From Phoronis australis (taxonomy: Eukaryota > Animalia > Phoronida), in the NCBI GenBank assembly GCA_002633005.1, contig NMRA01000054.1, positions 1,162,927-1,226,926 of the forward strand: a stretch of 64,000 nucleotides of DNA, written 5' to 3'. Below, in pieces: positions 921-62,474 of the stretch. The notes below the pieces were generated by a model. It was not told the DNA's origin. It saw only the letters and a program-made list of their open reading frames with translations, and searched no databases. How positions within the stretch are numbered: the stretch's first letter is position 1; each line of letters begins with the position of its first letter. The position numbers were made by a program, and so were the translations under genes.

Positions 921-1199
921 CATACCAAGACAAAACCCATAAGTGCTGGGAGGACAGTCCTCGTCGAATTGGTGAGTTGACTGATGTTAAACCAGTCACG
1001 GTTCCAAACTGTCGGTACACATGCGGTAATCTCGGATTTACCTTTGCTACGGTGCAAAATGGCGAAGAATGCTGGTGTTCTAGGAATCCGTTCCTATACA
1101 AGTTAAAAGGCATGAAAGACTGCAACAAAAAATGCGGCCCTACTGGGGAAAGTTGTGGCGGGGCTTGGAGAAGTTACGTGATTTACTCAGAAAAATTCA
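921..1199 (+). CDS. Mosaic receptor/lectin gene, exon A: WSC domain
   Basis: Acceptor ctctttttag|, donor |gtaagt, 279 nt, phase 1-1. Encodes CWEDSPRR...VTVPNCRYTCGNLGFTFATVQNGEECWCS...DCNKKCGPTGESCGGAWRSYVIY, the 8-Cys WSC pattern. Confidence 0.9.
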
Positions 1200-2910: not shown

Positions 2911-3036
2911 GAACTGGACCATGCAATAAAGGAATAGATTACTTCGAATGCGAGGGGAAGTGCCTGAAAAAGACAGATGTGTGCAACCACGACAAAAACT
3001 GTCCCAGCGGCCAAGACGAAGACAATGGCATGTGCG
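2911..3036 (+). CDS. Mosaic gene exon B: LDL-receptor class A repeat 1
   Basis: Acceptor gtctcttaag|, donor |gtgagt, 126 nt, phase 1-1. Encodes TGPCNKGIDYFECEGKCLKKTDVCNHDKNCPSGQDEDNGMC: 6 Cys with a C-terminal DE. Confidence 0.88.
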
Positions 3037-7740: not shown

Positions 7741-8748
7741 TGAACACGTTTTTATTGAAAATAAAGCGACCATTGAGTGAGTGCGTGCTTGTATGTGTTC
7801 ATTGTGTTTACATTGTAATATTTCATATTGATAATAAATCTACTCAAGGAGAAACAGGTAGTGCCTCAGTTGATGAGAAACAAAGAAATGATTCTCATAA
7901 TGTGTTCGCAGCCTTTAATAGTACTTAGGTTATTTCGGACCGGGCCACTGCCTGATGTTCAGAGATTTCTGTACAGTAAACAAGTGATCAAGGAGTGTAC
8001 GAAAAACTGTACTACACTCCTTGAAGTGATCATGTTACGCGATTCTGGTTCTGTCAGAGTCATTGTTATGACTAACCTTCTTGATAGGTCCCAGACTACT
8101 GGTAAAGTCTCCAAGATTACTGAATTTACCACTGTATATCTCATCACAAAGAAGGTGAGACTGTGATTGGTTCACCTTATTTTGTTGGCACCGTGAGAAC
8201 TGTGTGTGTTTACATGCATTCCAATGAGTGACCTGTTATTTGGTAATATAGATGGAGCAAGAGCCTAGGTAATGCTAAGTCTTATGGGTCGCCTGTGCCG
8301 GCCGATGTAATTACGACTAAATGTCAGGTCATACATTGACGAGTGTTTTGGTGGACATAAGTGTGATGTTTCGATTAATTTCATGTACATGTTCACTGCA
8401 TAGCTCCACGTGTGTTTGGTACCAGTGATACTAGCCCTACATATGCGATTTGTAAAGTGGCCGATCTGAAATATAAGCCTGACTATCTATCCGACTAATC
8501 CTCAAACATAAACACTAGGGATTACGCGACTAAGCTTGTCACCAAAATGAGTCGTTTTCTAATGAAGATGATACACTGGTATATATTGTAGCACTTTTGT
8601 AGCCAGAGCGTCTACTTCAAAAGAGACAGATGTGCACTGGTAAGAAGTATTTGCTTGTTATCATTAACTAATTCGTGATAGAGAGTAAATGTGTCCTGAC
8701 GCATAACTGCTGGTAAATACAATTCGTATATTTGTTTCTCCCCAACAG

Positions 8749-8865
8749 AACGTTTGGCAAGAGAGTGTGCGACAGAAGGCGGAATACTCTGCGGTTTCTG
8801 TGTTCCCCGGATAAATATTTGTGATGGTGTGAACAACTGTCACGATGGCATAGACGAGCTGTCTT
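8749..8865 (+). CDS. Mosaic gene exon C: LDL-receptor class A repeat 2
   Basis: Acceptor tttctccccaacag|, donor |gtaagt, 117 nt, phase 1-1. Encodes ERLARECATEGGILCGFCVPRINICDGVNNCHDGIDELS; the sixth Cys codon is t|gt across the next intron. Confidence 0.9.
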
Positions 8866-9162
8866 GTAAGTGATCTAACGACAAGAAGCACCACGTTTTA
8901 AACATGTATGAAGTGGTCATCGGGAGGACATTACTTTAGAGCATAGGGTGATTTAGGGTAGGGATGGTAGGGTAAGAGGTCACGGGCACTCTAAACACTA
9001 CCGGAAAAGCCTATCATTTCAAATTTAGGTGTGATTTAAATATTATTTCCAATGCGGCGTCCTAGACCAGCCTGTGTATGACGATGTGGTTGATAACGAC
9101 AATGACGAGAGTATAGTGGGGCTGCCAACTAATTTTATCTGGTAATGAAATTACGTTTTTAG

Positions 9163-9375
9163 GTGATTATAACGTGGCATACAAGAAATCCACGAAAATG
9201 AGTTCCACACATCCAGTAGGAAATGGAGAGAATGCCGTTGACGGCAACAGAAACCCAAACTATGAAATGTCTTCTTGCATCCATACTGACTCTGATACGT
9301 ATGCTTGGTGGCAAGTGGACCTCGTTGAAGACCATTGGGTCTTGGGAGTAGATATTGTCAACTTGGTCAAGCCTG
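9163..9375 (+). CDS. Mosaic gene exon D: F-type lectin (fucolectin/FTP) domain 1, N-terminal half
   Basis: Acceptor gtttttag|, donor |gtaagt, 213 nt, phase 1-1. Encodes DYNVAYKKSTKMSSTHPVGNGENAVDGNRNPNYEMSSCIHTDSDTYAWWQVDLVEDHWVLGVDIVNLVKP, with the NVA..K...SS, AVDG, C.HT and WW.VDL motifs. Confidence 0.92.
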
Positions 9376-10559
9376 GTAAGTCTCCGATACGCTTCTCTCG
9401 GTGTACAGAAATTTTTTAAAAACCCGCCTTCCGCCAAGAAAATTTTAATTTTCATCGCTTACATTAAATAGGTCCGTTTAATCCTAATTAATGGTCTTTG
9501 AGAGGCATACACGTTAATGAAATGTCTTTTCGCCTGCCTAGTTTTTTGCTTTTATCGCGTAAATTTTGGTTTTTGTGTTAAAAATTGCACTCATTTCCGG
9601 ACAAAATTGGTTGAGCCCTCGGCTGATACATCACGTCTGGGTCCTGGTCAGTCAGTTACAATCAACACTAATTGTGTTTTCGCAACCAAGAAGCAAAAGT
9701 GGTTCACACGTTTTAATGCGAATTTTGCGTTACAATTTCAAGTGCTGTCTTTTCAGTCAAAACTTCAAAAAATATTCCAATGACTTATTGTAACGGTTTA
9801 CTAACGACACGGCTTAGCAGGGTGACGTTTCGGAGAACACAGTCTCTGACCTCAAGGCGAAGGGAGCGACTGTCTCCTACAGAATGTGTCAGAGAAACGG
9901 GAAAATAAAACTAGGACAGGAATTGCATAGTAGAGCACTTCATATTCGGAAATCAATCTGCTGATTTTCGTCTTTCTTATATATATTTCAAGGGCAATTC
10001 GCTTCTGTCATTGTTGAATCTTAACTGAAGCGCCTTGGAGGCTTAAACAATACCAAAATTATGTTATGATCCTGAATTGTTGCAGAATGAGGCGTCCCTG
10101 TTTTATGAACAGTGCTGCCCCCAGCTTCATAAGATGGGGGAGCTCACCCCCTCTCCCCGATTCCTGCGCTTGTCAGACGGCAGTCCCAGTCCCGTCGAAG
10201 TGTGTAATCCGTCATTTTGAAATGTATCAGATAGCACTACAAGGGAACACTTTACGATTTTTAAACGCACTGATACGCCGTAAAATGTAACAATTTCGTT
10301 AAGAGTAACAATTGTTATATTTTTCGTCTATAATACATTTTGCGTTGCTAGGCCTCTCCTAAAATGCAAGAAGTTGTTAAATTTTATGTAATTTTACAAT
10401 TTACGTTAAATGCGCATGCGAGAAATGTAACGCTGTTACATTTTACGAAAGCGACGTCACATTTCATGCGTTTGCATGGTATTAGTCACACGGAGGAAAA
10501 CGGTTCCCACACTTAACGGCTCCTTCCTGGGATTGTTTGAATGAGATCCTACCCTATTG

Positions 10560-13150
10560 ATGTGTCCCTATGTTCCATTGTTTTTTTAGCATAAATTAGT
10601 TTCTTGGTATAATCAAAAATGTACCCCGCATAATTTCAACTTCAGACGAAAGAAGTTTCCAAGATCAGGTAACAAGTTCGTTGTTGTTAAAGCGTTCTTG
10701 CAATCTTTTGCTGGCGCTCACAGGTCATAAACTAATTGTGTATCTGGCATTATATAGACATTTATATTGACAGTACGAAAGTTTGTTCTGAAATTCCGGG
10801 GTCATTGTCTTCCTCAGAGCAATATCTTGGTCGTAACTGGTCAATGTGATGATGTCAAATCGGTCCGTCGGGCATCACATTACTTTGACTAAACGTGATC
10901 CTAAAACTTGTGATGCAACGGCGGATACCCATCTTGGATCTTTGGCCTGCCGGGCACCAAAACGCAATGCATAGCATGGTATACCAAATCTGTACTTGTG
11001 AATCTTCGATACCGCTCCCTCAGACTCAGACGTTTGGACTTCATTGCTAGTCGAGATTGTTTTCCTTGATACACATGAACAAGTGAAGGCAGCAAACCGT
11101 CCAGTTTGCACCGAATTTGCCTTCCATTTAAAAGTTCGCATGGAGAATACCCACAATCTAGATGCTGCAAGAAACATCCTTGTAAAGCACTCTTTGGTGT
11201 TACTGAAGATTTTCGCAAAGATTGTTTGAAAGTTTAAACTAGGCGTTCTGCTGCACCGTTTGTAGCAGGATGATGAGGAGCACCTGTGAGATGTACAATA
11301 CTTCGTTCCTGACACCAATGCTGGAATTCTTCCGATTTAAAACTTGCTGCGTTATCAGTCATCAACGTAAAAGGATAACCAAAATGCGCGAACTCTTTTC
11401 AAGCAATTCTGTTGTTGTTTTCGTTGACAAAGAATTTGTTGGGTGTATACAGGGGTACTTTGAAAAATGCATCTATCATGACTAACCAATTGGTCCCAAA
11501 ATTGATGTCATGATCAACGTGAACACGAATCCATGGCTTTTCTGGTAACATCCACGGACGAATAGCCGATTTTGGTGGTTTGTTCTGGTGTTCACCACAA
11601 ATAGTACAATGAGCACAAGTTCTTCGGTATCTTTGTCAATGTGAGGCCAATAAACTACAGTTCGTGCAAGTTGCTTCATTCTTTGCATCCTAAAAGGCCC
11701 AATATGAAGCAAATCCGACACTTGTTTTCGCAATCTTTTTGGAATAACTATTCGTGCACCATGAAATAGACAACCGCTTTGTGTTGTCAGTGTTTCACCT
11801 AATTTTCTATAGTATTTCAATGCCTCGTGTCCATCCTTCTTTGATGTACTGCATTGCCATTGAAATTTTAGAATCTTTTAAGAATTACATAGTGAGGAAT
11901 TTGGATTTAACAGGATTCAATTGGAGTCTTATCTGTTTAACAGAACAAACAACATTCACGCCTGCTTGCTCTTCTTCCCTGTCAAATTGCGGATCTTTAC
12001 CACATGGTAAACGACTCAATGCATCTGCATTTGAATGATCAGAGGTCTTCCAATATTCTATTGAATATTCATACTGCCATTGCAGGAACTCCTTTTGGTG
12101 GTGCGAAAATAGAAACTAAAGGTTTGTGGTCAATAACCAAAATAAATCGTCGTCCGTAAATAATGATGAAATTTCTTTAGCGTGAAAATGATTGCAAGAG
12201 CCTCCTGCTGAATTTGACTGTATTTTCTTCGCGTGTCTGTGAGAGACTTTGAAACATTAGCAATCGGTAGTTCACTTCCATCTAGATAGCGATGAAAAAC
12301 AAAAGCTCTAATCCCAACATTAGAAGTATCTCAAGCAATTACCAATTGTTTTGCCGGGCCAAACTGAACAGGAACTGCGTCTATACATAGGATTTATTTT
12401 AAACTTTGAAGAAATGAATTCTCCTCAGAATCCCATCTCCAAGGCATATCTTTACGTGTTAGACGGTTCAGAGGATCAGTTAAAGTAGCTAAATTCGGAA
12501 TGAATTTTCCATAGAACTGTAACGACCCAAGAAAAGAACGCAGATGGGAAACATCCGATGGTGCTGGCGTCTTTAAAATAACATCTACCTTATTTCCCTT
12601 TCTAATGCCTTCATGAGAAAGCATTTGACCAAGACATTCTACAGTCTTTTGGTCAAAAAGGCATTTATCCAAACGACATCTCATGCCATTATCTTGCAAG
12701 CGTTGAAGTAAACGCCGCAAGTTTTGTAGATGTCTTTCAGAATTGCGACCGCTCACTAAAATATCTCCTAAGTTGTCCCACCACGCCATGTAAATCAGTA
12801 GTCAATTTGCCCATAATATCCTGGAAATAACCAGGGGCTGAGCTAATGCCAAATGGCAACCTCTTTTGTAGAAGAACTCCACGATGTGTGAATAGTGCCA
12901 GACGTCTTTGACATTCCGGTGTTAATTTAATCTGATTATATGCATCAGCTAAATCTATTTTTCATGAAACAAAAATAGCCACTGAGCTTTCGCATTAGAT
13001 CTTCCGGCAGGGGTAGCGGATGACGGTGAGTTTAAAGTCGAGGCCTTATCGATACTGAAGAATCTCCACATACTCTTAACTTCCGTTTACTTTGTCCAGG
13101 AAGCGATGCTTTTCTTATAGGGACAACATGTGTTCCGTACTCGTTGAATT
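10560..13150 (-). mobile_element. Degraded Ty3/Gypsy LTR retrotransposon pol (RT, RNase H, integrase)
   Basis: RT DILVSGRNSERHLQNLRRLLQRLQDNGMRCRLDKC...LRSFLGSLQFYGKFIPNLA; RNase H-like KYSQIQQEALAIIF; integrase Zn-finger-like LLHIG...MKQLARTVVYWPHIDKD. Many frameshifts. Confidence 0.88.
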
Positions 13151-13554
13151 GTGTTGTCTACCTTTCTTTTCAATAGGACTAAAGAGACATGAATACAAGA
13201 CAGAATAAAATTTCTAAGCTCACCAAAAATGTTAATTCCCTGCATACGGTGGCGAAAAGGTGACAAGTCTTTTGATGTGTGCTCTGTCAGATAAAACCCA
13301 AAAAGAAGTTTTCTGCGCCCCCTTCAGTAGCGAAAATATTAGCACCATCTACAGGAAATGACTCACAAGTGTATCTGGACTTTACTATTGGGTAGGGAGG
13401 CATACGACATAACTTTGTCCGAAGGTAGGGTAGAATTTCACCCCTCTCTGATCATGACTTGTTTCACTTCTTTGGTGGTCAATTTACGACCCCCGTGTCC
13501 TCGCCTAATACGCCTATGGTTCCGATGTATCCGATGTAATTTTTTCACTTTCAG

Positions 13555-13776
13555 ATGACTGCAAAAGCAGTAACGCACAAAATGCTTATTCTGGTACTGC
13601 ACGACGGACAAGCCAGGGCGGAAAACCGTGCGTTGATTGGTATTACGGGATTACCAAGTTCCGTGAGCTTCCCGAAAACTTCTGTCGCAACCCGGACGGC
13701 AGGTCCTCCGGACCTTGGTGTTTTTCGAAGAAGGGCGGAGAGGAATGGTTGCCTTGTAACATTGCAAAATGTGGAA
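13555..13776 (+). CDS. Mosaic gene exon E: kringle domain, nested within FTP domain 1
   Basis: Acceptor tttttcactttcag|, donor |gtaagt, 222 nt, phase 1-1. Encodes DCKSSNAQNAYSGTARRTSQGGKPCVDWYYGITKFRELPENFCRNPDGRSSGPWCFSKKGGEEWLPCNIAKCG: 6 Cys with the NFCRNPD and GPWCF kringle signature. Confidence 0.92.
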
Positions 13777-14482
13777 GTAAGTGGGTTTCTTTCCTTGTCG
13801 AAGCACGTTTTGATATTACAATTTTTAGTACATTTATTCCCGATAACTCAAAGCGTTCTTTTCTCGCATGGCTACCTCTTCTAAACCGGGCTGCGGGATG
13901 GAGACCGGCAAAGTGGGGAGGTAGAAATCTATTACATGAAGTTCTGCAAGATATAGGTTGAAATAATATCCAGTCCTTTCTGTTAACACCTTTTTCTGTT
14001 GACTGTCATGGTTTAAGATCAACAATTCTTTCTTGATGTTGTATTTTCATACATTTTGATTTTTTCAGTACTTTGTATCGTCACATGAGTTTATTCTGCT
14101 GTGAAAAGAAAGAAAAGTAGACAAAAGATGTCCACTTTTATTTGTTGTTTCCGTAAGAGTTGAAATCTAGAGATAAGCACTTTTTTCGTTCAAGCCCAAG
14201 GGGGAGCTTCAGATACCGACAGAATACTCATCAGATAATTATTTGATAGGCATCACGATGTACAGTCTCTAAAAATGCCAGTTACACATATTTGAGAAAC
14301 AACAAGGTCAATAGATTTAATTATTGTATCCTGCACCATCTTTGCGTATCACAAACTTTCACCATAGCATCTCATTACTACACATCACCTTACTCTGTAG
14401 CAAGGATTGCTGTTGTGTAAAGAAAGTCCTACCTGCAAATGTTTGAATGCAGGCATAAGGGCCATTACGTTTCATACAAGGG

Positions 14483-15440
14483 TTGTACTTCGGGAGCAAG
14501 TTTTCGGTTATACAGAATTGGTTAAACGCACGACACTTTTCATTGCTCACAGTCTTTATTCCGTTACGTTCATACCTTCGGAACATAACTCTTCTCTCAA
14601 CTGAACATAGATTAAGTAACTGACCTAGCGACATAATTAAAAGACTCACGATATTTCGAAACATACTTGTTTCATTCTCAAGTGAAGATAAAATGACGCA
14701 GTAATGCCACCGCAGAGCATAAGCTGATGACACACACAGTGAGACACGGCGGGTGTGGAACACTGCAAAGAATGAGTAATGAACGGGGGTAACAGGAAAG
14801 TCACGCAAACAAGTGTAACGTGCGGCGCGACCCTGTTTGCTGCTCATTCAAAACAGGCTTCTTAAAAGCAATTAAAAGGGACTTTAATACTTTCAATCGC
14901 AGTACATCGTGCTCCACGTAGCGAATTGACGTGTTTTCCACAATTTCTTGACGGGTGATTTTACGTTCGTGACATTGCAGAAAATGATCTTGGATGGCGC
15001 CATTTTGAAGATGCATAGATAACCGACGGGAAAGATTGCAAACCGTTTGACCAATGTAACATTGTTTGACGTTTGAACGAAGACATTCGTTCATAGGGCA
15101 CACAAACTCATAAACAACACTACACTGTGCAACGGGGTGGACTTTCGCTTTAGAAATGTTATTTTTCATTAACAAGTTAGAGGACTTCCTATTCCGATAA
15201 ATAAATAATAACATCGAGGTAATCATCAGACTTACAAACTTTAACAATATATCTAATAATTTTCTTAATGGCGTGATCGTCCTGGAGGTAATTATTAGAC
15301 ATGACATTTTTGTAAAATATCTTTTTGGTCACGCCGGTCCGACGTGCAGGGACCTCATAGCTAATTCTGTCCACAAAAGCATTGGTGTACCCATTATTCA
15401 CCAGTGTTTGTAGATCGCATAAGACAAGCTGGTTGATAAT
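14483..15440 (-). mobile_element. 5'-truncated Penelope-like retroelement: RT tail, GIY-YIG endonuclease and pseudo-LTR with ORF restart
   Basis: ORF 14801-15307 has VVYEFVCP...CYIGQTVCNLSRRLSMH...IQDHF...LLIAFKKPVLNEQ (GIY-YIG), with LQTLVNNGY upstream. After the stop, a UTR leads to a new ORF start MSLGQLL...FNQFCITENLLPKY (ATG at 14634), the partial tandem layout typical of PLEs. Confidence 0.85.
14646..14685 (-). ncRNA. Minimal type I hammerhead ribozyme motif in the Penelope pseudo-LTR
   Basis: Minus strand reads UCAC-UUGAGAA-U-GAAACA-agua-UGUUUC-GAAA-ua-UC-GUGA. This gives stem I UCAC/GUGA, a U3-A8 variant of the CUGANGA core, a 6-bp stem II, GAAA and a UC cleavage site. Confidence 0.6.
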
Positions 15441-16028
15441 CGTGCCAGTCCCGGCGGCTGCGACGCCGGGGCCTGATCGGGTTCCGAGCCACTGGCTGGG
15501 ATAACGAGTCAGTCCGGCCGCGACAGGCCTGATCGGGTTCCGAGCCACTGGCCGGGATAACAAGCGTTTTGTGTGCTTAGAACTAAAAAAATCAATATAA
15601 ACAACACAGATGTAGGTTCTCCTGTCTGTATTTCACGGAAGAACACTTCGAATTTATCTCCGAACAGACCCCAAACTCCTGCTACGGACCTGGGTAAATT
15701 GGCCTGCCGAACTTTGTAGGCTACGGATACCAGTAAATCCGTAACAACGAAATGAAACAACACGTTTTTATAAGAACTCTGTGTATTTTAAGGGTTTTAC
15801 ATCGAAGTTTGATGATTTATTGGTGTTAAACGATGAATTCAAGCGAGAAGCTGACACCAGTAACCCGTGGTGTGAACTACTCACTGAAACCAATAACGTC
15901 ATTGGATAATTTCAACACCTCCGTCTGCCGTCAGGTGTCAGGTAACGCAACCGAACGTGCCGTTCTCGAGTAGAACTACTCGATCTAAATTGATACAAAA
16001 TAGGTTGTTTTTTGGGTGGTATTCTCCT
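15441..16028. mobile_element. One arm of a TTAA-flanked non-autonomous DNA transposon; the other end is lost at the Penelope junction
   Basis: Ends ...gggtggtattctcct|ttaa and is the reverse complement of ~29650-30220. Contains a duplicated ggcctgatcgggttccgagccactggc unit. Confidence 0.75.
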
Positions 16029-16037
16029 TTAACAGAA

Positions 16038-16870
16038 GTCGACCCCACACCCCGCGACCCACAGCCCCCACGACCCACAGCCCCCACGACCCACAACCCC
16101 CTCGACCCGCTACCAGACGACCAGTGGCATTTGCGCTTTTTACACATTTCATAATCATATTACGTCAGTGAATGACTTTATCACGCGAATCTTCTATGGA
16201 TCAAGTCTGGTGGTTAAAAATATAATGTGGCGTGAGACCGTGATCAGAAATATACGATTATGAGCGTGCTTCTGATTGTTGTCTCGGAAATAGTTCCACG
16301 AGTGGAAACCAATGGCCTTGTTCCACTAAAATTTCGAATACGTACATAATTTCACGTTTTTATTATTTGCTAACTGTTGTGTACTCGTTTACAGTATACT
16401 GCATTCAACATTGAGATACGTTTATATTTAACTGTTTTTTCAAACCCTGTTTACTGCACGTCGGTTCCACGCACTCTTCCAAAAAGCTTGATTTTGCCAT
16501 TCACAAAGAGCAGACGATACGATTACATTCTACCGGGAACGACATTTGTAACGTTGGTAGGTCTTTGATTTCCTGGCGCCGTTTTTTTCGTTTTTGGCTT
16601 TCAGACTTCCCGAATCGACTCTCTTAATTGCAGAAAACAGAGAAATGCCAGCCGAGCTCACGGCCCGACTGGTTGGTCCTGCAAGTCAGCGCTTGTTCTA
16701 TGTTCAGATAGAGTCGAACTTGTGTAGAGTGGGTCAAGGGCGCTGTGGGTCGTGTGTTGAGGGCGCTGTAGGTCGTGCGTCAATGGGTCGTGAGTCCTGG
16801 GTATCGGGGGTCGTGGGGATCGTAAGGTGTGGGGGTCGAAAGGGTCAAGGGGGGTTTCAAAATAACCCAG
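16038..16870. mobile_element. TIR-type repeat with subterminal GACCCAC/GTGGGTCG arrays
   Basis: C-rich cgacccac repeats at 16040-16110 face G-rich gggtcg repeats at 16730-16860. Same motif family as 60250-61352. Confidence 0.5.
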
Positions 16871-18861
16871 TACTACCATATTACTGTCGGCAGTATGTCA
16901 CGGTGTATTCAGTGGTCGTATTCACCCCAATGTGGGACAATTATAGGATATCCCATGTACATGGGAATACTACTTCCATATCCTATCGAGAATTCATTTC
17001 ATCTGGGAATGTCCCAACGAGACCGAAGAAGTCCAGATAGGATATCGCAGTATTCTTCATATGTATGTTGGATAATCTATTTATCCCATATATTTGGATT
17101 TATTTGCATCATCGTGGCAATACCTTGTTGCCGTGTGATCCGGTTTGTTGTTATATGACGTCATATGTATGCCAAGCACGGTTCCAAAACTGGTTAAGCT
17201 GCAACACAGTCTGTGAAAGTGTTGAATTTACCAGTACAGTTTTATTTCGTAATTAATTGATCGGAATTTTCTTGATTGTGAAATATACAAGTTAAAACAC
17301 TGAACCATTCAATTACGTCAAAAGTTTGTCGGAAACTTAGAAACAATCCATCCGGGAATATAAAAGTTGAAACATTCCCTGAACTGAGTTGTTTGCAACA
17401 GCTTGTGGTTTTAGCTTCGGTGAATTTCTTAGTTTTTTGGTCTTTTTTCATGTCTTAGCTCCTGGACTGTACATTGTAATAGAAGCATTTCCCTGGGTTG
17501 ATCACAGCATTGGAAAATAACTGTGGAAATCGTGCTGATTCGCAGACCTTGAGCTAAGGACTATCGCAAAGCAGACAAAGTTTTACGCCACGGCCGGCAG
17601 CCGAAAGTTGAACGCTTGGAGCAGATGATTGCCTCAATAAAAAAGCACACACTCGTTATTAGGTCTTGATTTTCTGTACAGACCTTAGATCTCAGGATAG
17701 ATATACTGTATGCATCCGGAATGAAAACTTTTTGTTTGGATTTGAAAAAGATGTTGACAGATTTTACTAGCCGGTGACCTTACATAGTTTGACCTAGTTA
17801 TATGTATGATGACCCAGATTGAAACTTCAGCGAGGCCCCAAAACAGCCGCATGATCACCGTGCGTCGTAATTTTCATCGGTAAATCTTTTCTGCTTTGAG
17901 AGGAATAAAACTGCTTTTTCAGGAGCGATGACTTGAATTAATGATTAAGATAACCCAATTGATTGAGCCCAATAAAATTTGGCGTTGTACACGCGGATTT
18001 ACTCCACCAGCAGACTGCACACCAACCGTGAAATACGGCTTCTACCGTTGAATACGGCTTCTGTCGTGATATACGGATTGGCTCTACTTTCCCCCTTACA
18101 TCACAGTTGAATACGTCACATATACATTGGCCATATTTTCATATATATGGGAAAAATATAAATACACATGCAAAAATACACATATGTATATCTATATCCA
18201 AATAAGGAATATTTCGTAAAAGTTTTGTCGTTTAGTTCAATTAATGTTACAGCCAAAAGTGGTATCATACAGCGATTGTCTTCACCTGTCACATGACAAC
18301 CTAGCCAACATTATGTTGTTGTCTACACCAAATTGTTTCCAGGCGGGGGAATTTTATCCCTGTCATCGTTAAACACTAATGAGATCTGATTTATTGTTGT
18401 AATCAGCAATATATTTCTATTGTGTAGGTTCTTAAATTAAGTACCGGTACATCTGCTTTATTGAAAAAGTGGTGGCAATGGAGTGATTTCCACTTAATAA
18501 ACGCTGGACGAAGGATGTGGTATCGGGTTGTCTGTGAATGATAGGGAAAAACAATGAATTTATGTAGTGATACTCTCATGAAATCTCAAAACTTTTAATT
18601 TTTGAGAATTAGGAATGCACCACATAACCCTCAGGCATGTCCTCGAGAAAAAGCGCAGCATTTTAAATCGATGTTGTTGGTTCTTTCGTTGTGTTATTAG
18701 CGATACGATTCTCATACATTAAATTTTCTATTTCTATTGCCATTTTAGGAGTCCAAAAGTTTATTGTAGCAAAGATACTCGCATCCTTTACTCCTCTCGG
18801 CTCATGTTCAATACATTTGACGAAATGCGTCGGGATAATTTCGTGCAATAATTCTTTTCAG

Positions 18862-19071
18862 AAACCGACGATGCCAACCAATTCAGTCTCATTCTCGGAG
18901 GCGTGAAGCTCTGGTGGAGGTGTAATGATTACAAAACATCAGAACCTCCGTACCTCAAGACGCTATCAATCGACTGCAATTCCTTAATGCTTGCAAGGCA
19001 TGTTAAAATTCAATCAAGGAGCCAATCAAAGTTTTTGCGCTTCTGTGAAGTTGATGTGAGAGCCGTTCATG
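18862..19071 (+). CDS. Mosaic gene exon F: F-type lectin domain 1, C-terminal half
   Basis: Acceptor attcttttcag|, donor |gtaatt, 210 nt, phase 1-1. Encodes TDDANQFSLILGGVKLWWRCNDYKTSEPPYLKTLSIDCNSLMLARHVKIQSRSQSKFLRFCEVDVRAVH, matching the FTP C-terminal C..C...(G/A)R.V.I...L..CEV.V pattern. Confidence 0.88.
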
Positions 19072-19892
19072 GTAATTAACCTACGTGTTGTTAAGTTTGC
19101 ACTGTGTTAAGATGTTTCAATAGTTTGAGTGATAATGCGAATGTCGAACAGTTCTGTGTACCGTTGGTGGAAGGTACCAATGCCATCCCCTCATCAGCCC
19201 TAATTAAACAACCCCCCTGCTCGTTACAAACGTTGCGCTGTCCTTAACCGCAACGACAAGGGTAACATATCTTGTGTGGAAAATGTAACCTCGTACATAA
19301 GCCATCGCAAAAGCGTGGGTCATTATGCACGTGAAATGAAAGCTTATGACCAAAATAGCGCAACGCCGTAGGATACTTTTCATGGGTCTGGCGTGTTTTG
19401 ATAAAACCTATAGTTCTTTTTCAATTTCAATAATTTTGAATTACGTGAATTTTAGTTCTTTTCGAAATGTTAAAGCTTACCCTGATTTCGAAAAGACAAC
19501 TTGCAATCCTTTGTCGTCACATAATCTATGAGCCTTCTAGTGTTTTGTGCCGCGCCTCGGTACTTGCAAATTTTCTGTGATATTCTATGTTTTCTGCAAT
19601 CTAAATTGGTACTTAAGTGAGCAAGACCTTAATATGTTTTTGAAATCCTCTAACTCTATCCCTGGAAAGCCATCTTCGATCTCTAGCTGGTGAGATTGCG
19701 CAAGCATAGGTGGAATTCGTTTGCACTCATTTGTTGCGTGTTTGTTCTACGTATGGAACTTATTATCACTGAAACTTTTCGCAACTTCGGGGTTTTTCAA
19801 CCGAATTTGCACAAAAGTCATATCACAAGAAAGCCCTTTTTCAGTTACTGATGGTCTAGGATTTTCCCAGAAGCTGATAATAAACAGTTTAA

Positions 19893-34386: not shown

Positions 34387-35851
34387 TTAACGGCCCACTA
34401 TACAATCAAGGCATTGTACGTCGTCTGTTTTATTTATGGTTGTTGGACGCAGTACCGTCCTCAGACAAAGTATCTGTTGTATGTGTAGGAGCCTCTATCG
34501 ATGATCAAACATCCAGTAATGTTCCAACAAACGATGTCATGTGTAGCCACAAAACACGTAAGTACAGCCAACACAATATCAGGCCAATGGAGAGGTACAC
34601 AGCTTACAAAAAGTGGCAGATACAAGTCAGAGGGCACTGGGTATAAGTCTCAGCATTAACCACATCACAATTGTGTTGTAAGATTCGTCACACAGCGGAA
34701 GGTACTATACACTAAAGAAAGCCAATACATGAACAAAGCAATGTCACGATAACCAGATTGAAGATTAATATGAAGTTAAAAACGCAGGAAAATAATAAAA
34801 AAATGTCGTCTCAGTGTCACTATCAATTTCTTCCAATATTTCGATGCACCGCCGTATACACTAGCATCTCGCGGGAATTGTATAACACAACGGTGGCCCG
34901 TACTGACATTTTGTTTTGGTTAGCAGACACACGAATGCTGTTAATTTTTATTTCACTAAACGAAAGAAAATGTGGCGGTAATTTGGCAGTATTCTGCGCG
35001 TGCAATAAAATATCGCAAATACATAATCCTAAGTTTAATCAGTAATTAATAGAAAAACCAGGACTTTGATGGAGGATTTTTTGATTGTAACTCGACCATA
35101 GTTGGATACTAAAATCACATTCACAAAGACAAGTTTCAAATTTGTTTGGCGAACTGACACGCTACAGCTTATGCATGAAGGCCTAAAAATGTACATTGGA
35201 AGCAAAATGAGGATATCATTAACATGGTCAAATTCCAGTTGTTCATATCACCCGTTTTGTTGCTCTTTTGCAGCCTACATTTTTCTTAAAACCGTGGTCT
35301 TCCTCGAAGGGTAAAAGTTCATAATTAATATGATTTTTCTATTGATTGCGTACATGATTTTTATATCTTAACACATGTTAATTACAGTTTTCAGTACATT
35401 ATTTGTGGTAGCAACGCATTAGCCCCGTGCGTACAGGACTATTCATTTTGAGACCTATGAGCAGGTTTCTTGCACTTCACGTTAAAAGTTTGAGATTTCA
35501 CAAGTGTGAGGCACTGTTTCAAGAGTGAAATTAGACACTTGTTTGAATTAAAAGCTGACGTAGACAAAAGCAAGCTAATACGCCTAAAAGTTCGTTACAT
35601 TTGGCAATTTATGAAATTAGTAGGCTCAGAGCGATGGTCTTAACATACTGTAGTAACCAAATTTACATGTGTTACCGTTGAAGATAGGCTTTAAGTGGCA
35701 GATAGATGTATTTTAAACACTGACATTTCTGGACTCCAACATTTCTTGTCTGACTATTCTATTTGTAGGCTGGGCTTTTCAATTCTGTGCGTGTCATTAC
35801 CACTTCGACCAAGCTTGTGAATATGTTATAGTGTTGACGCACATTTTTCAG

Positions 35852-36064
35852 CAACCAACGTGGCCAAAAATAAAAAAGCGATGCAAATGTCAGACCATGA
35901 TTTAGGTCCCGCATGGAAAGCTATAGATGGAAATGACAGTCCGCTTTGGGAACACTCATCTTGCACGCACGTAAAAGATTGGGAGTATCAGCCCTGGTGG
36001 AAGGTGGATTTGTTCGACATTCACCACGTCCATGGAGTCAAAATCACAAACAGACAGGCTGTCG
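35852..36064 (+). CDS. Mosaic gene exon G: F-type lectin domain 2, N-terminal half
   Basis: Acceptor acatttttcag|, donor |gtacgt, 213 nt (same length as exon D), phase 1-1. Encodes TNVAKNKKAMQMSDHDLGPAWKAIDGNDSPLWEHSSCTHVKDWEYQPWWKVDLFDIHHVHGVKITNRQAV. Confidence 0.92.
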
Positions 36065-36375
36065 GTACGTTGTTTTAATTTACACTACTGCGTGATGCCG
36101 TGCGCTTTTCCAGGTGGAAACACCAGCCTTCACTGCGACGTTACTGTTACTCACAATCGAACCCCATACATTTCTGCGACACAGTTTGCGTGATGACATT
36201 GGATTTTTGTCCCATTGCTCTTGGCGTCATTGTGCTTACCTGTTACTGAATATCGGGAATTTGCCTGAGGTTTGTAAAATTTCGTGCTGGTTTTCCACGT
36301 TCAGGCTATATAACTAATTCAGGAATTCACACAGCAAGATTATAATTTTTGTTCAATCTACATGACCCGTCAGAG

Positions 36376-37090
36376 AATAGCGGAGTTGCAACGCCGCCAT
36401 ATTGGAAATGGGTAAGAATGTTGCATTGTGGTTAAGCCAGTAAACAAGTACGTCGGCAAGCGTGGGGGCGAACCGGCCAGAGGGAGGTTATACGTGTTGT
36501 GTGCCTAACACTGGTCGAGTTTTTTATTAGTCTTCGATTCACGGTTTTCACGTGTACAAAGAAGTTTGGATTCCTGATGAGGCCGGAGAAAATCTGTACC
36601 GGACAGAAACAATGCAATCCCGCTGACAAGCACGCTGCGTCTGTTTTCAAAGTCCAGACCCGCGTAGTGGGGCACATCCCTTGCAAGAGCAGCAAAACTT
36701 CTGCGTTCTTATTGAATCGCGGCGTAAGTTTGAAGTGTATACAGACATAAGGGTGAGGCTCGTGGTCTACAAATTCAGGACTGTCGGATCTTTCAATTGA
36801 TAAATTGGAGACGTTAGAACTGTAGGTAAGGGCATTTTTCTCATGTAGTTCATGGGCTGGGTGCTTACCAAAGTCTGAAAACGCGTTGGGGCACTTGTTG
36901 GGGTATGGGCGCTTATTAGGGCGAATAGCGGCAGAATTACATACAGCAGCGTAGTTTAATGCACACAAATCACACGTCGTGCAAACCAATCGGCCATTCC
37001 ATATACCCTAATCAATCCCAATAGCCTTTGAGCACCCTAATTTCCGGACATGCGCAATCGTTAAATCGATTCGGTTGCAACTCCGCTATT
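36376..37090. mobile_element. TIR element with a perfect 17-bp TIR, containing a HIRAN-like coding fragment
   Basis: aatagcggagttgcaac (36376) pairs with gttgcaactccgctatt (ends 37090). Internal NPADKHAASVFKVQTRVVGHIPCKSSKTSAFLLNRG resembles a HIRAN motif. Confidence 0.55.
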
Positions 37091-38801
37091 GGCAGAAATT
37101 TTACGAATGGATTCATGTCCACCTCAAACGACACGAATCACCTGACACACTCATTGACCTCTCCGTCTATTTTTACACCCCTGAAATTTTTACTTTAAGC
37201 ATGAAAAATTGGGCTTAAATGACCTTTTTGGTAATAGCACTGTTCCGTATAGATAAGTCACTGATATTCGATATTTTGTAGGTAAGTATAATATTCATCC
37301 CCCAGTCCCATTTTTTTCAAAGAAATAACCTTCCCTTCGTGGGGGGGGGGCACTCGTTATGCCGGACCACATAATTTAAGTACCCATACTCGAACTAAGT
37401 TATTGATAAGGATATAGCAATCTGTAACAAAATGACTGGAATTTCTAGGCGATGAATAAAAGTTACAACAATAAAGTTCAAAGGTTTGGTCTTCTTTGAT
37501 TCCATGCATAGAAATCCAACTGAAAATGCGCATTTTTGGATGCCAAGTGTCAAGTACTTGTTGTAATTGCTCAGTAATATAAAATACAAACAGCAACTGA
37601 AAGTTTTTAATTTGCTGTAGAAGCATTATATATCGTGCATAATAATCTTGTTTACAGTTTCCTTGCTCTCAGAATGGTTAGTTTTATGAAGAGCTTTCAT
37701 CAAAGGCTAATTTTATAAAGTGACACTTTGTGGCGATATAGTATCAGAACATCCTTTCCAGAGAAATATGGCTGCAGTGTTGTGCAGTTTTAAAAGGCGG
37801 GAAAATGCATTGACGATCTGCCAGTAATGTGAGTGAGGCAGGTTTTGAATATAACTTATGAACTCACCCTGGCCAGAATGGGCGTGTTTGATATATTGTT
37901 CGGTGCACGGATGCACATTTTTGTTCATTTCCTTGGTTGAAATCATTGCTCTCCCTTGGGCATTGAGGGAAACCCGACATTGCAAGGCAGTTGGTGTCTT
38001 CCCCGAATGCATTTGGAGCATTAGCACTTACGTCGGCTTCTTATGATAAGAGCTGGCCACGATCCACTTCTAATGAAATCGAGTCTAGGTGGACAATACA
38101 CAAAGGCAAATGGAACTCCAGATTTGCTCATGACGTGAAAGTCTCTTGACGAAGAGTTTGCAGCCAGACTCCTTCAGTTGTGTCTAGAGATGAGGTTATC
38201 GGAGAATTGTCATAAAAACGTTTTAGATGAGATGAGTGGCTAAACTTCAGAGCAGTGTCTTCTTTTCTTGCTTGGCTTCTACCTCTAAATCTGGTGCAAA
38301 CGATGGAGGGAGAAATATTGAAATCCCATCTATTACATGAAGTTATGGGACACCTGGGTTAATACCCAATCTGTTCTACTTTGAAGCTCAGTCACGTGAA
38401 GACCTTTTTCTGTTGGTTGGTTGTCGTGATTTAAAGAGCCACAATTCTTTCTTGGTGTCAATACTTTATATCGTCACATGAGATTATTCTGCTGTGGAAA
38501 GAAAGAAAAGTAGAAAAGAAATATTTGTACTTTTAATCGTTGTTACCGTAAAGGTTGAAATGAAGCCCCTTTTTCGATTAAGCCCACGGTGGGAGCTTCA
38601 GATGCATCATTGTATACTTACGCACCAAGGACTACTAAAGAAAGGACATGCACAGCCAGATTCCTGCCTTCGCTAGCGAAGGCCAGTTTATCTGAGCAGC
38701 TGTTCTTCTATTTTTAGCTTCATTTGGCGTAGGAATATTTAGGGATTGCTATGGTGTTTATTGTACGCCATATTGCATAATTTACACTATATTTATATGT
38801 A

Positions 38802-40514
38802 TAGATTATTACATGGCGAAGTCGTAATCCCCCCTTATCTAGATAACGCCCCTCGGGCGATAATTCTCCAAAATCCACTCAGGCTCTAGATAAGGCGGAT
38901 AACGACTGAGAACATGTAATAATCTATTTATACCACATACTGAACGAGAAATATTGCAATGAATGGATCTACCTTTCTCGACTCGCCTCGGCTTTGTAAC
39001 TACTTTCTATGTCAGAGGCTCGGGGTCGGAGGTCGTGACCTTTTAAGAAAAGCCGAGCAATTTTTGTCAAATAATTCTTTCACTCAAAACCAATTGAACA
39101 ATAAAACAAAATAGAAATAAAGTGAATCTATAAATTAAGGTTTAGCAACTATTAAAGCTTACTACACATTTTATCACGCTAAGCTTCGACCGGGAAAATA
39201 TCGTCTGCTAAAGTAGGTTACCACTAGTAACTGGCTATAATGCTCAAGTCAAAGGATCCCGTCGACACGATACCCGCATTCAAATTGGAGATCGGTGATT
39301 TACAAGTGAGAGAACGCGAGAGAAAATTTTCACTGAATTAAAATATCGTTTTTATGGAAATTATGTGTCGTATTTTTCATAGCGTATAAACGTCGGTGCA
39401 ATACCCTTTGCTAAACATGCGATTGTTGCGCGTGCTCATTTAAGTATTCTATTTTCACTTTCGATGACGTCAGCCGCTGAGTTGTGTAGTGGTGAAGTCG
39501 GCGACTCAAAACTCTTGAGGCCTGGGTTCGAATCCTGCCTCGGTTTCCCGCCAAAATGTTATCTCACTAGTGAGATAAATTTATAATGGGTTATTACACG
39601 GTTGTATCTGCCATTCGAGGCTAATAGTGTGGTATAATTTAAGTTATACCACAATATTAGCGTCAAATGGCAGATAAAACCGTGTAATAACCCATAAAGT
39701 TATCGCACTAGTGAGATAACGATTTGGCGGGTAACCGAGGACGGAGTCGAACCCGGGACCTTGGTATTGCTGATCACCGACTTTAACCACTACACCACGC
39801 AGCGACTGACGTCGTCAAGAGTGAAAATAGAATACTTAAATGAGCACGCGCAATAATTGCATGTTCAACAAACCGCATTGTACTGTACTTATACGCTACG
39901 AAACATAAGACACATAATTGCCATAAAAATGATATCTTAATTCAGTGAAATTTTTCTCTCATGTCCTCTTACTTGTAAATCACCGATCTCCAGTTTGAAT
40001 GCGGGTATCGTGTCGTCAGGATCTTTGTCTTGAGAATTATATTCAATTACCAGTGGTAACCTACTTTAGCAGACGATAATTTCCCGGTCGAAGCTTAGCG
40101 TGTAAAAAAACGTGTTTTAAGCTCTAATAGTTGCTTAACCTTAATTTAGAGATTCCCTTCATTTCTATTTTGTTTTAATTTCCAATTGTTTTTGAGTATA
40201 AGCATTATTTGACAAAAATGGCTCGGCTTTTCTTAAAAGGTCACGACCTCCGACCCCGGGCCTCTGACATAGAAAGTAGTTACAAAGCCGAGGCGAGTCG
40301 AGAAAGGTAGATCGATTCATTGCAATGTTTCTCGTTTAGTATGTGGTATAAATAGATTATTACATGTTCTCAGTCGTTATCCCCCTTATCTAGAGCCCTC
40401 GTGGATTTTGTAGAATTATCACCCTCGGGGCTAACGCCCCTCGGGCGATAATTCTCCAAAATCCACTAGGGCTCTAGATAGGGGGGGATAACGACTTCGC
40501 CATGTAATAATCTA
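38802..40514. repeat. ~1.7-kb inverted repeat: two copies of the 5291-6085 element, tail to tail with a 6-bp spacer
   Basis: Arm 1 38802-39637, spacer tttaag, arm 2 39644-40514 (...tgtggtataa-tttaag-ttataccaca...). The arms are similar but not identical. Confidence 0.9.
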
Positions 40515-40726
40515 TATTTATTTTAAATACCGCAATCAATCCACTCAAAGCATAAAACGTCAATTAAAAACATTCTGAGGTCATGTTAGATCATTTAAAG
40601 TTGGCACTATTTTGTTCCATGTAACATTACTACCGGATGTCTGAGTTGTTTGATCCAGCATGGTGGAATTTTGAAAGGAAAATTGTGATTGTCTTGTCAA
40701 GTTTTTGCTGGTTTTCTTGCTTCAAA

Positions 40727-43120
40727 ATGCCTAATAGATGTGGTGTTGTAAACTGCAAAGGAAATTACAACGAGGAGAACAAGTGTAGTGTGTTTCGATT
40801 GCCTAGAGATGAAGCTGAGAGACAGAAATGGTTGGATGTACTCCCTCCACGTGAGGATTTCGTTGTTGATCCAGCAAAGTTTTTCATATGTGAAAGACAT
40901 TTTCCCTTGAATCCCCCTATGGTCAAATTGCATAAGACTATGCCAATGTGATTATCTCAAAATCAACTGATAGGTTTGTTTGTGTCTTCATGTCGGAAGA
41001 TTTGCATGATAGTAAACTGCCTGTTATTGTCGAAAATAAACCCACTTTGTGCTGTCCTCTGATCCTCAGAGCCTTCAAGGATGGTGTGAATGTACCAATG
41101 GGTAAGATGCTTTCACCGAACAATGGCCTATCTTCTTACTCACAGTTTTATGAAGCTGTGCGCATTGCTGTTAACTATGACATCCCACTGGAGTATATAT
41201 TAAACAAGGCAGTTACAGTTCTCCAAGCTACTCAAACGTTGGATATAGAGAGCAAGAAGGAAACAAATTGGAGTTTTTAACTCATCAGCTCCAGCTCTTG
41301 GCCCATAAACAGTTTACTATGAATGACTTTTGCTTTGCAATTGAATCCTTCCCCTGGTGCAGCTATGAACAGCTGAGGGATATCTTAATGCTGCCTGGCA
41401 AGTGTAAAGTACAATCTGTTGTTTGCGTCTGTGGACGAAAATGATGTTCTCAGAAACAAAATTGAGAAAATGCAAAAACCTCAGCAAAAGAATGTATTCC
41501 TGCTGGTTGACGAATTGAAAATTCGTCCGACTGTTGCATTTTCTGGCGGAGTATTAAATGGTATGGCCAAAAATAATCCAGATTGTAAGGCGGCATAAAG
41601 GGCCAAGCTTTATGATTTCTGTCACACCAGTGCATAAACTAACTGCAAAGGTTCAATTCGACTTTGTGAAAGAAGCTGCTGCTGCTGTTAAGAAGGCAGG
41701 GGGACGTGTGATAGGCTCCACTACGGACAATCATAAAGTGAACCAGTAGTATTGTAAATTGTTTAAACGGCCTTATGAGTATAGTGCAATCGCCGAGCAT
41801 CCACTCTATGATAAGCGTGTGTGGTATTTACTGTTTGACACGGTACACCAACTAAAGTGCATTCGCAATAACTGGATAATGGAGAAGTACCAGATAATTA
41901 GTCTTGATGGCCAATCAAAGGCATCATTCGCGGACTTAAATTAGTTGTACAACTCAGAAAAAGACAGCATTTTAAAAACCACTCCACTGACTCAAGCCGC
42001 TGTTAATCCATCAAAACTGCAGCTGCAGAATGTACAACACGTACTGAGAGTATTCAATGAAAAAGTGGTTGCTGCTCTAAAACTGCGAGGATGCCAGGAT
42101 ACTGCATCCTTTGTAGAAACTGTTCTCGACTGGTGGAATATTGTGAATATGTCTGGAAAGGGCAGAGCCAGCGCCTTAATGAACCCCACCGTACTGTCCA
42201 ATAACCAGGTAAAAATATTTAATTTTAGTCAACTGCTGTTACTGTTGCCTGTTATTGCTGTATTATTACTCTTAAAGTAATTGGTATTTTGAATGCAATT
42301 ATAAAATGTTTTTATACTTGAATTGAGGGACGATTCCAAGCGACAGAATTTTGGTTTTTAGTACATGTAGAATACCACAACATACATTGCTACATTTGTG
42401 ATTTATCTCTTCAAGTGACCCTAAAATAACTAAATGTACCACAAACCAACGCAAGATTTCGAGTATGTTCTGCTACAAGAAATACAAAGTGATCGTCTGG
42501 AAGAGGAGTTTTCTGTGTTAAGGCAGTCGACTGGAGCGAACTCGTTTATGACAACAGGAGTTGTCTTTGCAGCATGTAAAAAACACTAGCTAAACACGCT
42601 GCTTCTTTTCTGCTGTCTATTGAGGTTCAGCCTGAGCCAAAGCAGCATACATGTTTGGGGCTTGACGTTGTTCTAGAGGATGCAGCCTCTATTGTGGTGG
42701 AAGCTACTCTTTCAGTTAACGAAGAAAGTAGTGCAGCGTATGTAGCCGGTTGGCTTTAGAGCAAGTGTGCCGGTGAGCTTGCTTTCACTGAAGAAGAACC
42801 AATTGTAACTAGTGATGTTAAAGATTTCATTGAAACAGTGTCAAAAGTATCTTTGACAGTGCCTCACATGTGCACTTTTGAACTTGTGCGGCTTGGTCTA
42901 TGCTTCGTAATGAAGGCACGTCATCGTGCATGCTACCGCAAAAGATTGCGTAACATTTTGTTAACAATGGCCAAATTCAACAACATAGATATTAATTGAT
43001 GCTCTAAGTTATATAGACATCTCTCAAATGTACTTTTGTGTGGACTGCAGAACCTAGAAAAAGACCATAAAAATGCAGTTCTTCTCTAGACATCCGTGAA
43101 AAAGGCCTGCTTAGCTAATT
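40727..43120 (+). pseudogene. P-element/THAP9-like transposase pseudogene
   Basis: THAP MPNRCGVVNC...VFRLPRDEAERQKWL...FICERHF; catalytic-region motifs LLVDELKIRP, STTDNHKVNQ, LLFDTVHQLKCIRNNW and IQSDRLEEEFSVLRQSTG. Several stops and frameshifts. Confidence 0.88.
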
Positions 43121-48734: not shown

Positions 48735-48932
48735 GAGAAAGATTACACGACGTAAAAGGTACAGTCGCCATATGGGACGATAAGCAAGAGTGCTTCTTCT
48801 TCAAAGGCCCTGCAACGGGAGGGGAAAAGATATACAGGGAATGTCCAAGAGAACTAGCTGGACGTATTGTGCAGATTCAGATAATGGCCGATTCAGCAGT
48901 ACTGACCTTGTGTGAGGTTGAGATTTATATGT
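48735..48932 (+). CDS. Mosaic gene exon H: F-type lectin domain 2, C-terminal half
   Basis: Acceptor ttgctctcag|, donor |gtgagt, 198 nt, phase 1-1. Encodes GERLHDVKGTVAIWDDKQECFFFKGPATGGEKIYRECPRELAGRIVQIQIMADSAVLTLCEVEIYM. Confidence 0.92.
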
Positions 48933-49501
48933 GTGAGTATCTTCACAGTGGGCGTTTATTGTTTGGGTGAATACTGCCAAAGCATGGTAGCAGTACCTAC
49001 TTTTGTTACTTCACATATTTGTCAGTCAAGTAATCACCAGGAACTACAAGTTTTTGTTTCATCGTATTATTTTCGCCATAACCTATAACACTGTTCTTCA
49101 TTGATCATTCTAAGCTTTATTATGTGCCCATGTTCACGTATGTTGGGTGCACATTGGCGTCATCGTTGTGTGGCCGTCGTGGCACCATCACATCAAATTA
49201 TTTGCTGGATCTTTATAAAAGATGACAGATGAATGGTGTTCCTATAAAGCTGATGACAGATTACGACGTTGACCACTGCGCCACCAAGTATCTCTTTTTT
49301 CTTGGAGAAAAGAAATGTCTTCAAGTGTGTTACTTTGTCATTATTTTTTATTTGTACTCACGATACAATATGGCACTGTGGTGGCCATTTTTCATTCGCA
49401 GAGATCTTATATCAGTGATCCCTTGTCGGATTCTTCTGAACTTTAATATGTAGAGAGATCCAGTCAAGCCCTAATGAAAGTAGGTCCTAGCGTTATTGAA
49501 C

Positions 49502-53886: not shown

Positions 53887-54066
<180 letters not shown>

Positions 54067-54689: not shown

Positions 54690-54877
54690 GAATGCGGAAA
54701 TCATAATCAGTGGAAAACAGTACGGCACAGGCAACGGCAAGTACCATATTCTCAAGGCCGGCTGTAGAGGTACCGAAGTTTCTCTGGATAGGTGTGTGCA
54801 TGGACAGTGGCCGGATAGTAATAAAGCAACGTGCTCCACGGGAGGCGTGGCTTCAGTGAAGTGTACAGACCACCGAA
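54690..54877 (+). CDS. Mosaic gene exon J: SRCR domain 1, C-terminal half
   Basis: Acceptor tctctttacag|, donor |gtaagc, 188 nt, phase 2-1. Encodes NAEIIISGKQYGTGNGKYHILKAGCRGTEVSLDRCVHGQWPDSNKATCSTGGVASVKCTDHR; with exon I this gives a 6-Cys group A-like SRCR. Confidence 0.92.
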
Positions 54878-62329: not shown

Positions 62330-62474
62330 CTATTCGGCTTGATTTCGGGAAAAGTCTTAATCAGGGAGCCATACAAGTTTATATGCACCACGAAGGAACA
62401 TGGGGCTATATTTGCTGGAACGACAACTGGAATTTAAAAGCCGCTGAAGTTGCTTGCAAGCAGCTAGGATTCTA
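62330..62474 (+). CDS. Mosaic gene exon K: SRCR domain 2, N-terminal half; the gene continues beyond the window
   Basis: Acceptor tcttttaacag|, donor |gtaagt, 145 nt, phase 1-2, split at the same point as exon I. Encodes IRLDFGKSLNQGAIQVYMHHEGTWGYICWNDNWNLKAAEVACKQLGF. Confidence 0.9.

Follow-up and report, generated by a model that had tools for sequence, protein, structure and literature searches.

A 64,000-nucleotide stretch of the Phoronis australis genome (assembly GCA_002633005.1, contig NMRA01000054.1, positions 1,162,927 to 1,226,926 of the forward strand; here termed the window) carries part of a gene in which one of two F-type lectin (FTP) domains is interrupted by a complete kringle. 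The protein part encoded in the window has the order WSC-LDLa-LDLa-FTP1[kringle]-FTP2-SRCR-SRCR, and the gene runs on past the window. Here, we report that the kringle exon (exon E) is spliced in transcripts between exons D and F, which comparison with known FTP domains shows to be the two halves of FTP domain 1. The junction lies in the loop that binds fucose in F-type lectins. In the reading that we prefer and consider likely, D and F refold into one disulfide- and calcium-clamped β-sandwich, probably blind to fucose, that would display the kringle from the former sugar loop.

We analysed RNA data comprising three raw runs and one small contig set (X1–X4), which share the species label; about 18–19% of every raw run was used for mapping. 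Positions 8700–19200 of the window were read-mapped with all four sets and positions 35700–55200 with the three runs. The reads of X1 and X2 are stranded and match the plus-strand gene. Exon D (213 nt), exon E (222 nt) and exon F (210 nt) are each flanked by AG/GT, in phase 1-1 and open in frame. The D–E joint is covered by 310 (X1) and 268 (X2) reads and the E–F joint by 226 + 35 = 261 (X1) and 160 + 14 = 174 (X2) reads, the second figure of each sum being a minor variant with a different first base of F; upstream, the C–D joint is covered by 213 and 171 reads. Reads over these joints begin at 60–82 different start places per joint in the two runs. With a generic matrix, the acceptor and donor sites score 10.0/8.1 for E, 2.8/10.7 for D and 6.0/6.1 for F. 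An initial annotation, made from the letters alone, had proposed an in-frame, intact six-cysteine kringle with strong splice sites and had pointed to D–E and E–F junction reads as the check; hundreds of such reads are present in both runs, and the coordinates, phases and translations of D, E and F are as it gave them, except that F reads on slightly beyond the end given there, as far as R-A-V-H. Its counter-scenario of an exon E never transcribed with D and F is contradicted by both joints. A second, misassembly of the region, falls because the spliced reads cross both introns, which makes misassembly irrelevant to the exon order.

Some of the read data weigh against this picture. Exon E is covered less deeply than its neighbours, at 74% and 81% of the D and F average, and the reads (151 nt) are shorter than E, such that no single read covers D, E and F together. 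The D–F joint is absent among the best 15 of the 34 joints in positions 8700–19200, and a small E-skipping fraction is possible, given the lower depth on E and the 19 weaker joints beyond those 15. That the nested arrangement is an artefact of misassembly, or E a pseudo-exon or a minor alternative exon, would accord with that somewhat lower depth, but the number, strandedness and scattered starts of the junction reads, with no D–F joint among the best 15, refute it as the main form, and we give it next to no weight.

Estimated from depth, expression amounts to roughly 200–250 reads per kilobase per million (RPKM) in X1 and X2. Exons C–J are abundant in these two runs and have zero depth in X3 of the same study, and expression is therefore tissue- or stage-specific; in X3 and X4 there is no depth on exons D, E and F and there are no C–D, D–E or E–F joints. 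Where it can be counted, a minor variant form makes up about 8–23% of junction reads. It differs at several exon ends (positions 8832–8865, 18862, 36059–36065, 53900–53902 and 54690–54720), has altered amino acids in LDLa 2, at the E–F junction and in SRCR 1, and is either a divergent allele or a close paralog. This variant likewise carries the kringle–F join (35 of 261 and 14 of 174 E–F reads).

The strongest evidence that D and F belong to one domain comes from individual residues. In eel agglutinin, the fold is clamped by the disulfides Cys50–Cys146 and Cys108–Cys124 and by the salt bridges Arg41–Glu149 and Asp64–Arg131, and calcium is bound by Asn35, Asp38, Asn40, Ser49, Cys146 and Glu147 (PMC5712786). 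Domain 1 has counterparts of every clamp residue, with Glu149 as Asp (the residues, not the bonds, being what is seen). Three of the four clamps span D and F (Cys50–Cys146, Arg41–Glu149 as Asp, and Asp64–Arg131), whereas Cys108–Cys124 lies inside F. The calcium motif h2-D-G-x and all six calcium ligands are present. D has one cysteine and F three, and therefore either half alone would be odd-numbered. The gaps between the cysteines are 53, 18 and 23 residues in domain 1 against 53, 17 and 23 in domain 2.

Profile alignments agree with this assignment. Exon D matches PDB sequences of striped bass FBP32 (E = 6e-24) and eel agglutinin (1k12; E = 2e-8), and aligns to positions 1–39 of 91 of the Pfam family F5_F8_type_C_2. 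We built a reference profile of 150 positions, independent of the window, from 79 bacterial FTP domains picked by a pattern that includes the fucose motif. A bacterial metagenome protein (L001 212-2449) with three tandem F-type lectin domains and a canonical motif in each served as a reference seed. On this profile, D covers positions 1–64 and F positions 114–142; joined, they align over positions 1–142 with 64.9 bits and are gap-free at the junction. When F was shuffled behind D, 0 of 1,000 sequences reached position 135, though 2 scored equally high. A phmmer search with F in 1.84 billion representative proteins gave 17 matches: 13 tandem FTP proteins, three TPR proteins and one unassigned repeat protein. 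For the 13, each aligned stretch that is given falls in the C-terminal part of an FTP domain, and the eight of F's matches that were looked up come from a gastropod, hemichordates, amphioxus, Xenopus and a marsupial. A second profile of 138 positions, built from 77 domains of these 13 proteins and so biased towards F by construction, gives 26 bits for F (0 of 2,000 shuffles) and 30 bits for H, the C-terminal half of domain 2, and D+F cover its positions 1–136 with 87.4 bits, here too gap-free at the junction. Among protein clusters of the ESM Atlas, D leads to FTP clusters; the top clusters of F are unnamed, with one F5/8 cluster at 0.89, a lead only.

Taken by itself, exon F is the weak member, and the following results count against its assignment. 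On the bacterial profile it reaches 7.8 bits, a score matched by 2 of 2,000 shuffles, and four of its 17 phmmer matches are the unrelated repeat proteins; no close ortholog and no kringle protein is among the 17, a search that an ortholog with a diverged F would escape. Its identity to H in profile columns is 17%, under the 5th percentile (24%) of 731 pairs of bacterial reference domains. F has no Pfam match, no FTP match among PDB sequences and no BLAST alignment to H; nor did BLAST match it to a bacterial FTP domain. The split FTP hit flanking a kringle hit that the initial annotation had expected thus appeared in part: D and E match Pfam, but F does not. Structure prediction for F by itself gave weak models (pLDDT 46 and 67), with which Foldseek returned nothing at E ≤ 0.001. 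The alignment-guided model superposes on residues 84–149 of the streptococcal F-type module 2j22 (Z 3.3, root-mean-square deviation 3.1, 60 aligned), which ranks 2 of 48,161 and is non-significant. Queries of a protein word index with F, D and E gave no match and are without weight, as the kringle query missed plasminogen-type proteins too.

These features raise the alternative that the insertion broke the domain, leaving D and F as decaying linkers round the kringle with no joint refolding, in line with the divergence of F and its poor folding alone. Half a sandwich, however, is not expected to fold alone; domain 1 retains its four cysteines, its calcium ligands and both salt-bridge pairs that link the halves, at near-canonical spacing, and the gene is abundantly expressed. 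We therefore regard a broken domain as very improbable. Also considered and rejected were hidden FTP half-exons beside the kringle: six-frame profile scans of both introns and the direct joints show none, which disposes of the objection, foreseen in the initial annotation, that missed exons might complete separate FTP domains on either side. Domain 1 would be a member of the FTP fold without being a canonical fucolectin.

The insertion point can be placed on the eel agglutinin numbering. The fucose motif is R-x-D-x4-R, and its Arg79 is placed in the loop CDR4 (PMC5712786). The arginine of exon G, the N-terminal half of domain 2, aligns with Arg79 of eel agglutinin and the last asparagine of D with residue 78; in the gap-free alignment, the intron at the D–F junction interrupts the codon that corresponds to Cys83, midway along the motif. 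The location of the kringle at the fucose-binding loop, as proposed in the initial annotation, therefore stands. Its further statement that the kringle replaced this loop needs rewording: the loop is split, but its residues are substituted and not deleted, and D+F retain the canonical loop length. Domain 1 keeps His52, 26 residues ahead of the loop as in the eel numbering, whereas Arg79, Asp81, Cys82 and Arg86 have become Leu, Lys, Pro and Asp; at profile columns 65, 67 and 72, domain 1 has Leu, Lys and Asp where domain 2 has Arg, a gap and Arg. Of the motif His...R-x-D-x4-(R/K), domain 1 thus has the histidine only, and the kringle lies inside it. The strong conservation of this motif in the bacterial reference set is partly by construction; it is canonical in 50 of the 77 animal FTP domains. 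Because Arg79, Asp81 and Arg86 are replaced, fucose binding by domain 1 is probably lost.

A different possibility is that domain 1 still binds glycan through a remodelled site composed of His52, lysines near the insertion and the kringle surface, with a new specificity. His52 and its spacing to the loop would fit such a site, as would the two lysines that replace Asp81 and occupy the E–F junction codon, and deviant motifs may mean changed specificity (PMC5712786). On the other hand, both arginines of the triad are gone, one of them now an aspartate, the junction lysine is a threonine in the minor variant, and in Drosophila CG9095 the loss of two basic residues led canonical binding to be deemed unlikely (PMC5712786). 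We consider glycan binding by a remodelled domain 1 unlikely.

Domain 2 offers a direct comparison. Its loop, too, contains a phase-1 intron at the corresponding position, and G and H are joined directly (541 reads in X1, 396 in X2), which bears out the initial annotation in describing a sister domain with a 213-nt first exon and no inserted exon. Domain 2 keeps the His, Arg and Arg of the motif; Asp and the vicinal Cys pair are missing, and its loop is one residue shorter. On these residues, it probably keeps its glycan site. No match to G was found in the plasmid sequences searched. The G–H intron contains remains of a THAP-domain transposase (40625–43000), and G is rarely spliced to two sites in that intron, 41069 and 43688 (X1, 3 reads per joint).

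The inserted module is a complete kringle. Exon E scores 47.3 bits against Pfam PF00051 (gathering cut-off 34.3), and it matches 77 PDB sequences at E ≤ 0.001, with plasminogen at E = 1e-27. The insert is 73 residues long, with cysteines at positions 2, 25, 43, 55, 67 and 72; it shares the six cysteines and the conserved core with the kringles of plasminogen and HGF and is shorter. The ends of a kringle are tied together by its outer (C1–C6) disulfide, and a host loop can therefore tolerate one. The lysine-binding site of kringles consists of an Asp-x-Asp anionic pair and an Arg cationic centre in functional numbering. At the lysine-binding places of the plasminogen kringle alignments, exon E (13557–13775) has Asp-Gly-Arg and Glu: the second Asp of the pair in plasminogen kringles 1 and 5 is an Arg, and a Glu takes the place of the Arg that precedes the last aromatic residue of kringles 1–4. 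Exon E would thus be without the canonical lysine-binding residues, with the charge of the site apparently reversed, and its ligand is therefore probably a protein or polyanion surface.

How the kringle came to lie inside the domain can be approached from the intron phases. Exon E is a single exon with phase-1 introns on both sides, as a class 1-1 shuffled module is, and class 1-1 modules, kringles included, as a rule insert into existing phase-1 introns (PMC3927616). We favour an insertion, which accords with this rule; exon shuffling, which the initial annotation had inferred, is the simplest history. Alternatively, an FTP-kringle-FTP ancestor may have lost the second exon of its first FTP domain and the first exon of its second, in which case D and F would derive from different domains. 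All exons being in phase 1-1, such losses keep the frame; shared intron phases ease loss through exon skipping (PMC3927616), and F and H are more diverged than D and G (17% versus 44% identity in profile columns). Yet this history needs two losses against one gain, and neither intron contains a remnant of an FTP half, the best score being 2.5 bits on the minus strand against 22–59 bits for the four real halves; nor is any sequence common to both introns. We think exon loss a doubtful alternative to the insertion.

The introns flanking E share no repeat, and hence show no trace of intronic recombination. In the D–E intron, positions 10800–13300 hold, on the minus strand, remains of a broken long-terminal-repeat retrotransposon (reverse transcriptase and integrase zinc-finger, both under Pfam cut-offs); the element ends a few hundred bases ahead of E, and X1 and X2 contain transcripts of related copies, antisense to the gene. 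The E–F intron contains, at 14300–16100, a GIY-YIG-like fragment (weak Pfam match), possibly of Penelope type, together with high-copy repeats, and reads in all four sets fall here. A second broken retrotransposon-like element, judged by its open frames, lies in the H–I intron (50300–53750); two of its frames were scanned without a Pfam match.

The open reading frame runs unbroken from exon A to the end of exon K (Table 1). Beyond the joints already described, H–I is covered by 244 + 56 (X1) and 188 + 55 (X2) reads and I–J by 208 and 172 reads. Loose read ends before C match the 3′ end of B (400 and 315 reads), those after J match the start of K (343 and 287 reads), and F–G is supported by loose ends from both sides. 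The A–B join is outside the stretches covered by RNA reads, and we infer the place of A in the gene.

Table 1 Exons of the FTP1[kringle] gene in the window
Feature	Position	Strand	Evidence
Exon A, WSC domain	921..1199	+	Pfam WSC 40.6 bits; AG/GT, phase 1-1; presumed to belong to this gene, upstream of B
Exon B, LDLa-like module 1	2911..3036	+	Pfam Ldl_recept_a E 0.005, under cut-off
Exon C, LDLa-like module 2	8749..8865	+	Pfam Ldl_recept_a E 0.0005, under cut-off; C–D joint
Exon D, N-terminal half of FTP domain 1 (calcium motif, Cys50, His52; end inside fucose-binding loop)	9163..9375	+	Pfam PF22633 32.9 bits
Exon E, complete six-Cys kringle nested in FTP domain 1	13555..13776	+	Pfam Kringle 47.3 bits; D–E and E–F joints
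Exon F, C-terminal half of FTP domain 1 (equivalents of Cys108, Cys124, Arg131, Cys146, Glu147)	18862..19071	+	phmmer matches; bacterial FTP profile
Exon G, N-terminal half of FTP domain 2 (His and first Arg kept)	35852..36064	+	Pfam PF22633 34.7 bits; PDB alignments
Exon H, C-terminal half of FTP domain 2 (second Arg kept)	48735..48932	+	G–H joint; FBP32 E 8e-4
Exon I, first half of SRCR domain 1	53900..54065	+	Pfam SRCR 46 bits; H–I joint
Exon J, second half of SRCR domain 1	54690..54877	+	Pfam SRCR 25.3 bits; I–J joint
Exon K, first half of SRCR domain 2	62330..62474	+	Pfam SRCR 36.8 bits; 3′ end inferred from donor site only

Comparison with known F-type lectins (eel agglutinin AAA, 1k12; striped bass FBP32, 3cqo; and the tandem FTP proteins of hemichordates, amphioxus, molluscs and Xenopus) shows that domain 1 shares their calcium motif, core disulfide residues, salt-bridge residues and His52, and that the gene shares their pattern of two exons per domain with phase-1 flanks. 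What sets domain 1 apart from these lectins is the 73-residue kringle within it and the absence of Arg79, Asp81 and Arg86. An intron within the domain is also present mid-domain in oyster bindin, and in FBP32 lies near Glu123–Cys124 as against the Cys83-equivalent codon here (PMC5712786).

Among SRCR mosaic proteins, the same modules recur: sea urchin SRCR proteins commonly contain F5/8 and WSC, and kringle, WSC and LDL-A occur in those of P. australis, for which the consulted text gives domain counts and no nested arrangement (PMC10855680). Domain insertion as such is frequent: according to an ECOD survey, it occurs in 20% of multidomain proteins (PMC13114784). The closest parallels to the nesting involve FN2 modules.

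FN2 modules are kringle-like, and the metalloproteinases MMP-2 and MMP-9, which contain them, keep their active site and gain an exosite. Under accessions that we take to be those of MMP-2/9, the ECOD insertion table has three inserts per host. The likeness lies in phase 1-1 modules inserted into an existing phase-1 intron, there of the catalytic domain (PMC3927616); the difference is that here the inserted module occupies the binding loop and the binding residues have gone. In domain 13 of IGF2R (CI-M6PR), a small disulfide-closed FN2 module is inserted in a lectin-type receptor repeat, between strands 8 and 9, where it makes protein contacts and supports IGF2 binding by domain 11; host fold and module differ from ours, and the insert is not described, in the parts of that account consulted, as occupying a sugar site (PMC7015683).

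We found no FTP[kringle] nesting in the literature or databases, a weak search resting mostly on titles and abstract openings. None of the 13 FTP proteins matched by F carries a kringle, and the word kringle does not occur in the F-type lectin reviews consulted. ECOD group 380.1 we take to be the kringle-like group and 10.32 the galactose-binding jelly-roll group. The survey of PDB structures and selected AlphaFold proteomes, in 44,929 of its 48,551 insertion events, includes 10 inserts of group 380.1 and no host of group 10.32 (PMC13114784). The nesting is likely to be previously undescribed. Nested exon shuffling is already known; what would be new is insertion into a lectin binding loop with loss of the binding residues.

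On the basis of these comparisons, we propose the following course. A phase 1-1 kringle exon would have entered a phase-1 intron already present at the loop codon and common to tandem FTP domains. D, E and F are spliced together, and D and F would refold round the insert, such that the kringle is presented where the sugar would dock. FTP domain 2 would remain a glycan-binding unit, and FTP1[kringle] would offer a protein- or polyanion-binding surface. With its WSC, LDLa and SRCR domains, the whole, a mosaic protein of extracellular type, would most likely be a tissue- or stage-specific recognition or adhesion protein.

The gene provides a transcript-verified case of a module nested inside a domain, probably by exon shuffling, at a ligand-binding loop and with the binding residues lost; in the nested FN2 cases (MMP-2/9 and domain 13 of IGF2R), the insert is not described, in the sources as far as consulted, as taking over the binding loop. 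Pfam sees a truncated lectin and a kringle and misses F, and nested forms of this kind are accordingly invisible to domain-architecture surveys. If the proposed arrangement is true, the protein contains a natural loop graft with its ungrafted sister domain as a built-in control, and the uninterrupted neighbour allows a simple before-and-after comparison. CDR4 would then mark a site where the F-type fold can apparently accommodate a domain of 73 residues, a property that may be of use in lectin engineering. On balance, and with only modest confidence, we lean towards this being the first F-type lectin on record in which an entire shuffled domain has taken over the sugar loop, turning a fucose receptor into a platform for kringle display, and in invertebrate F-type lectins the CDR4 intron may serve generally as the entry point for a swap of glycan recognition for protein recognition.

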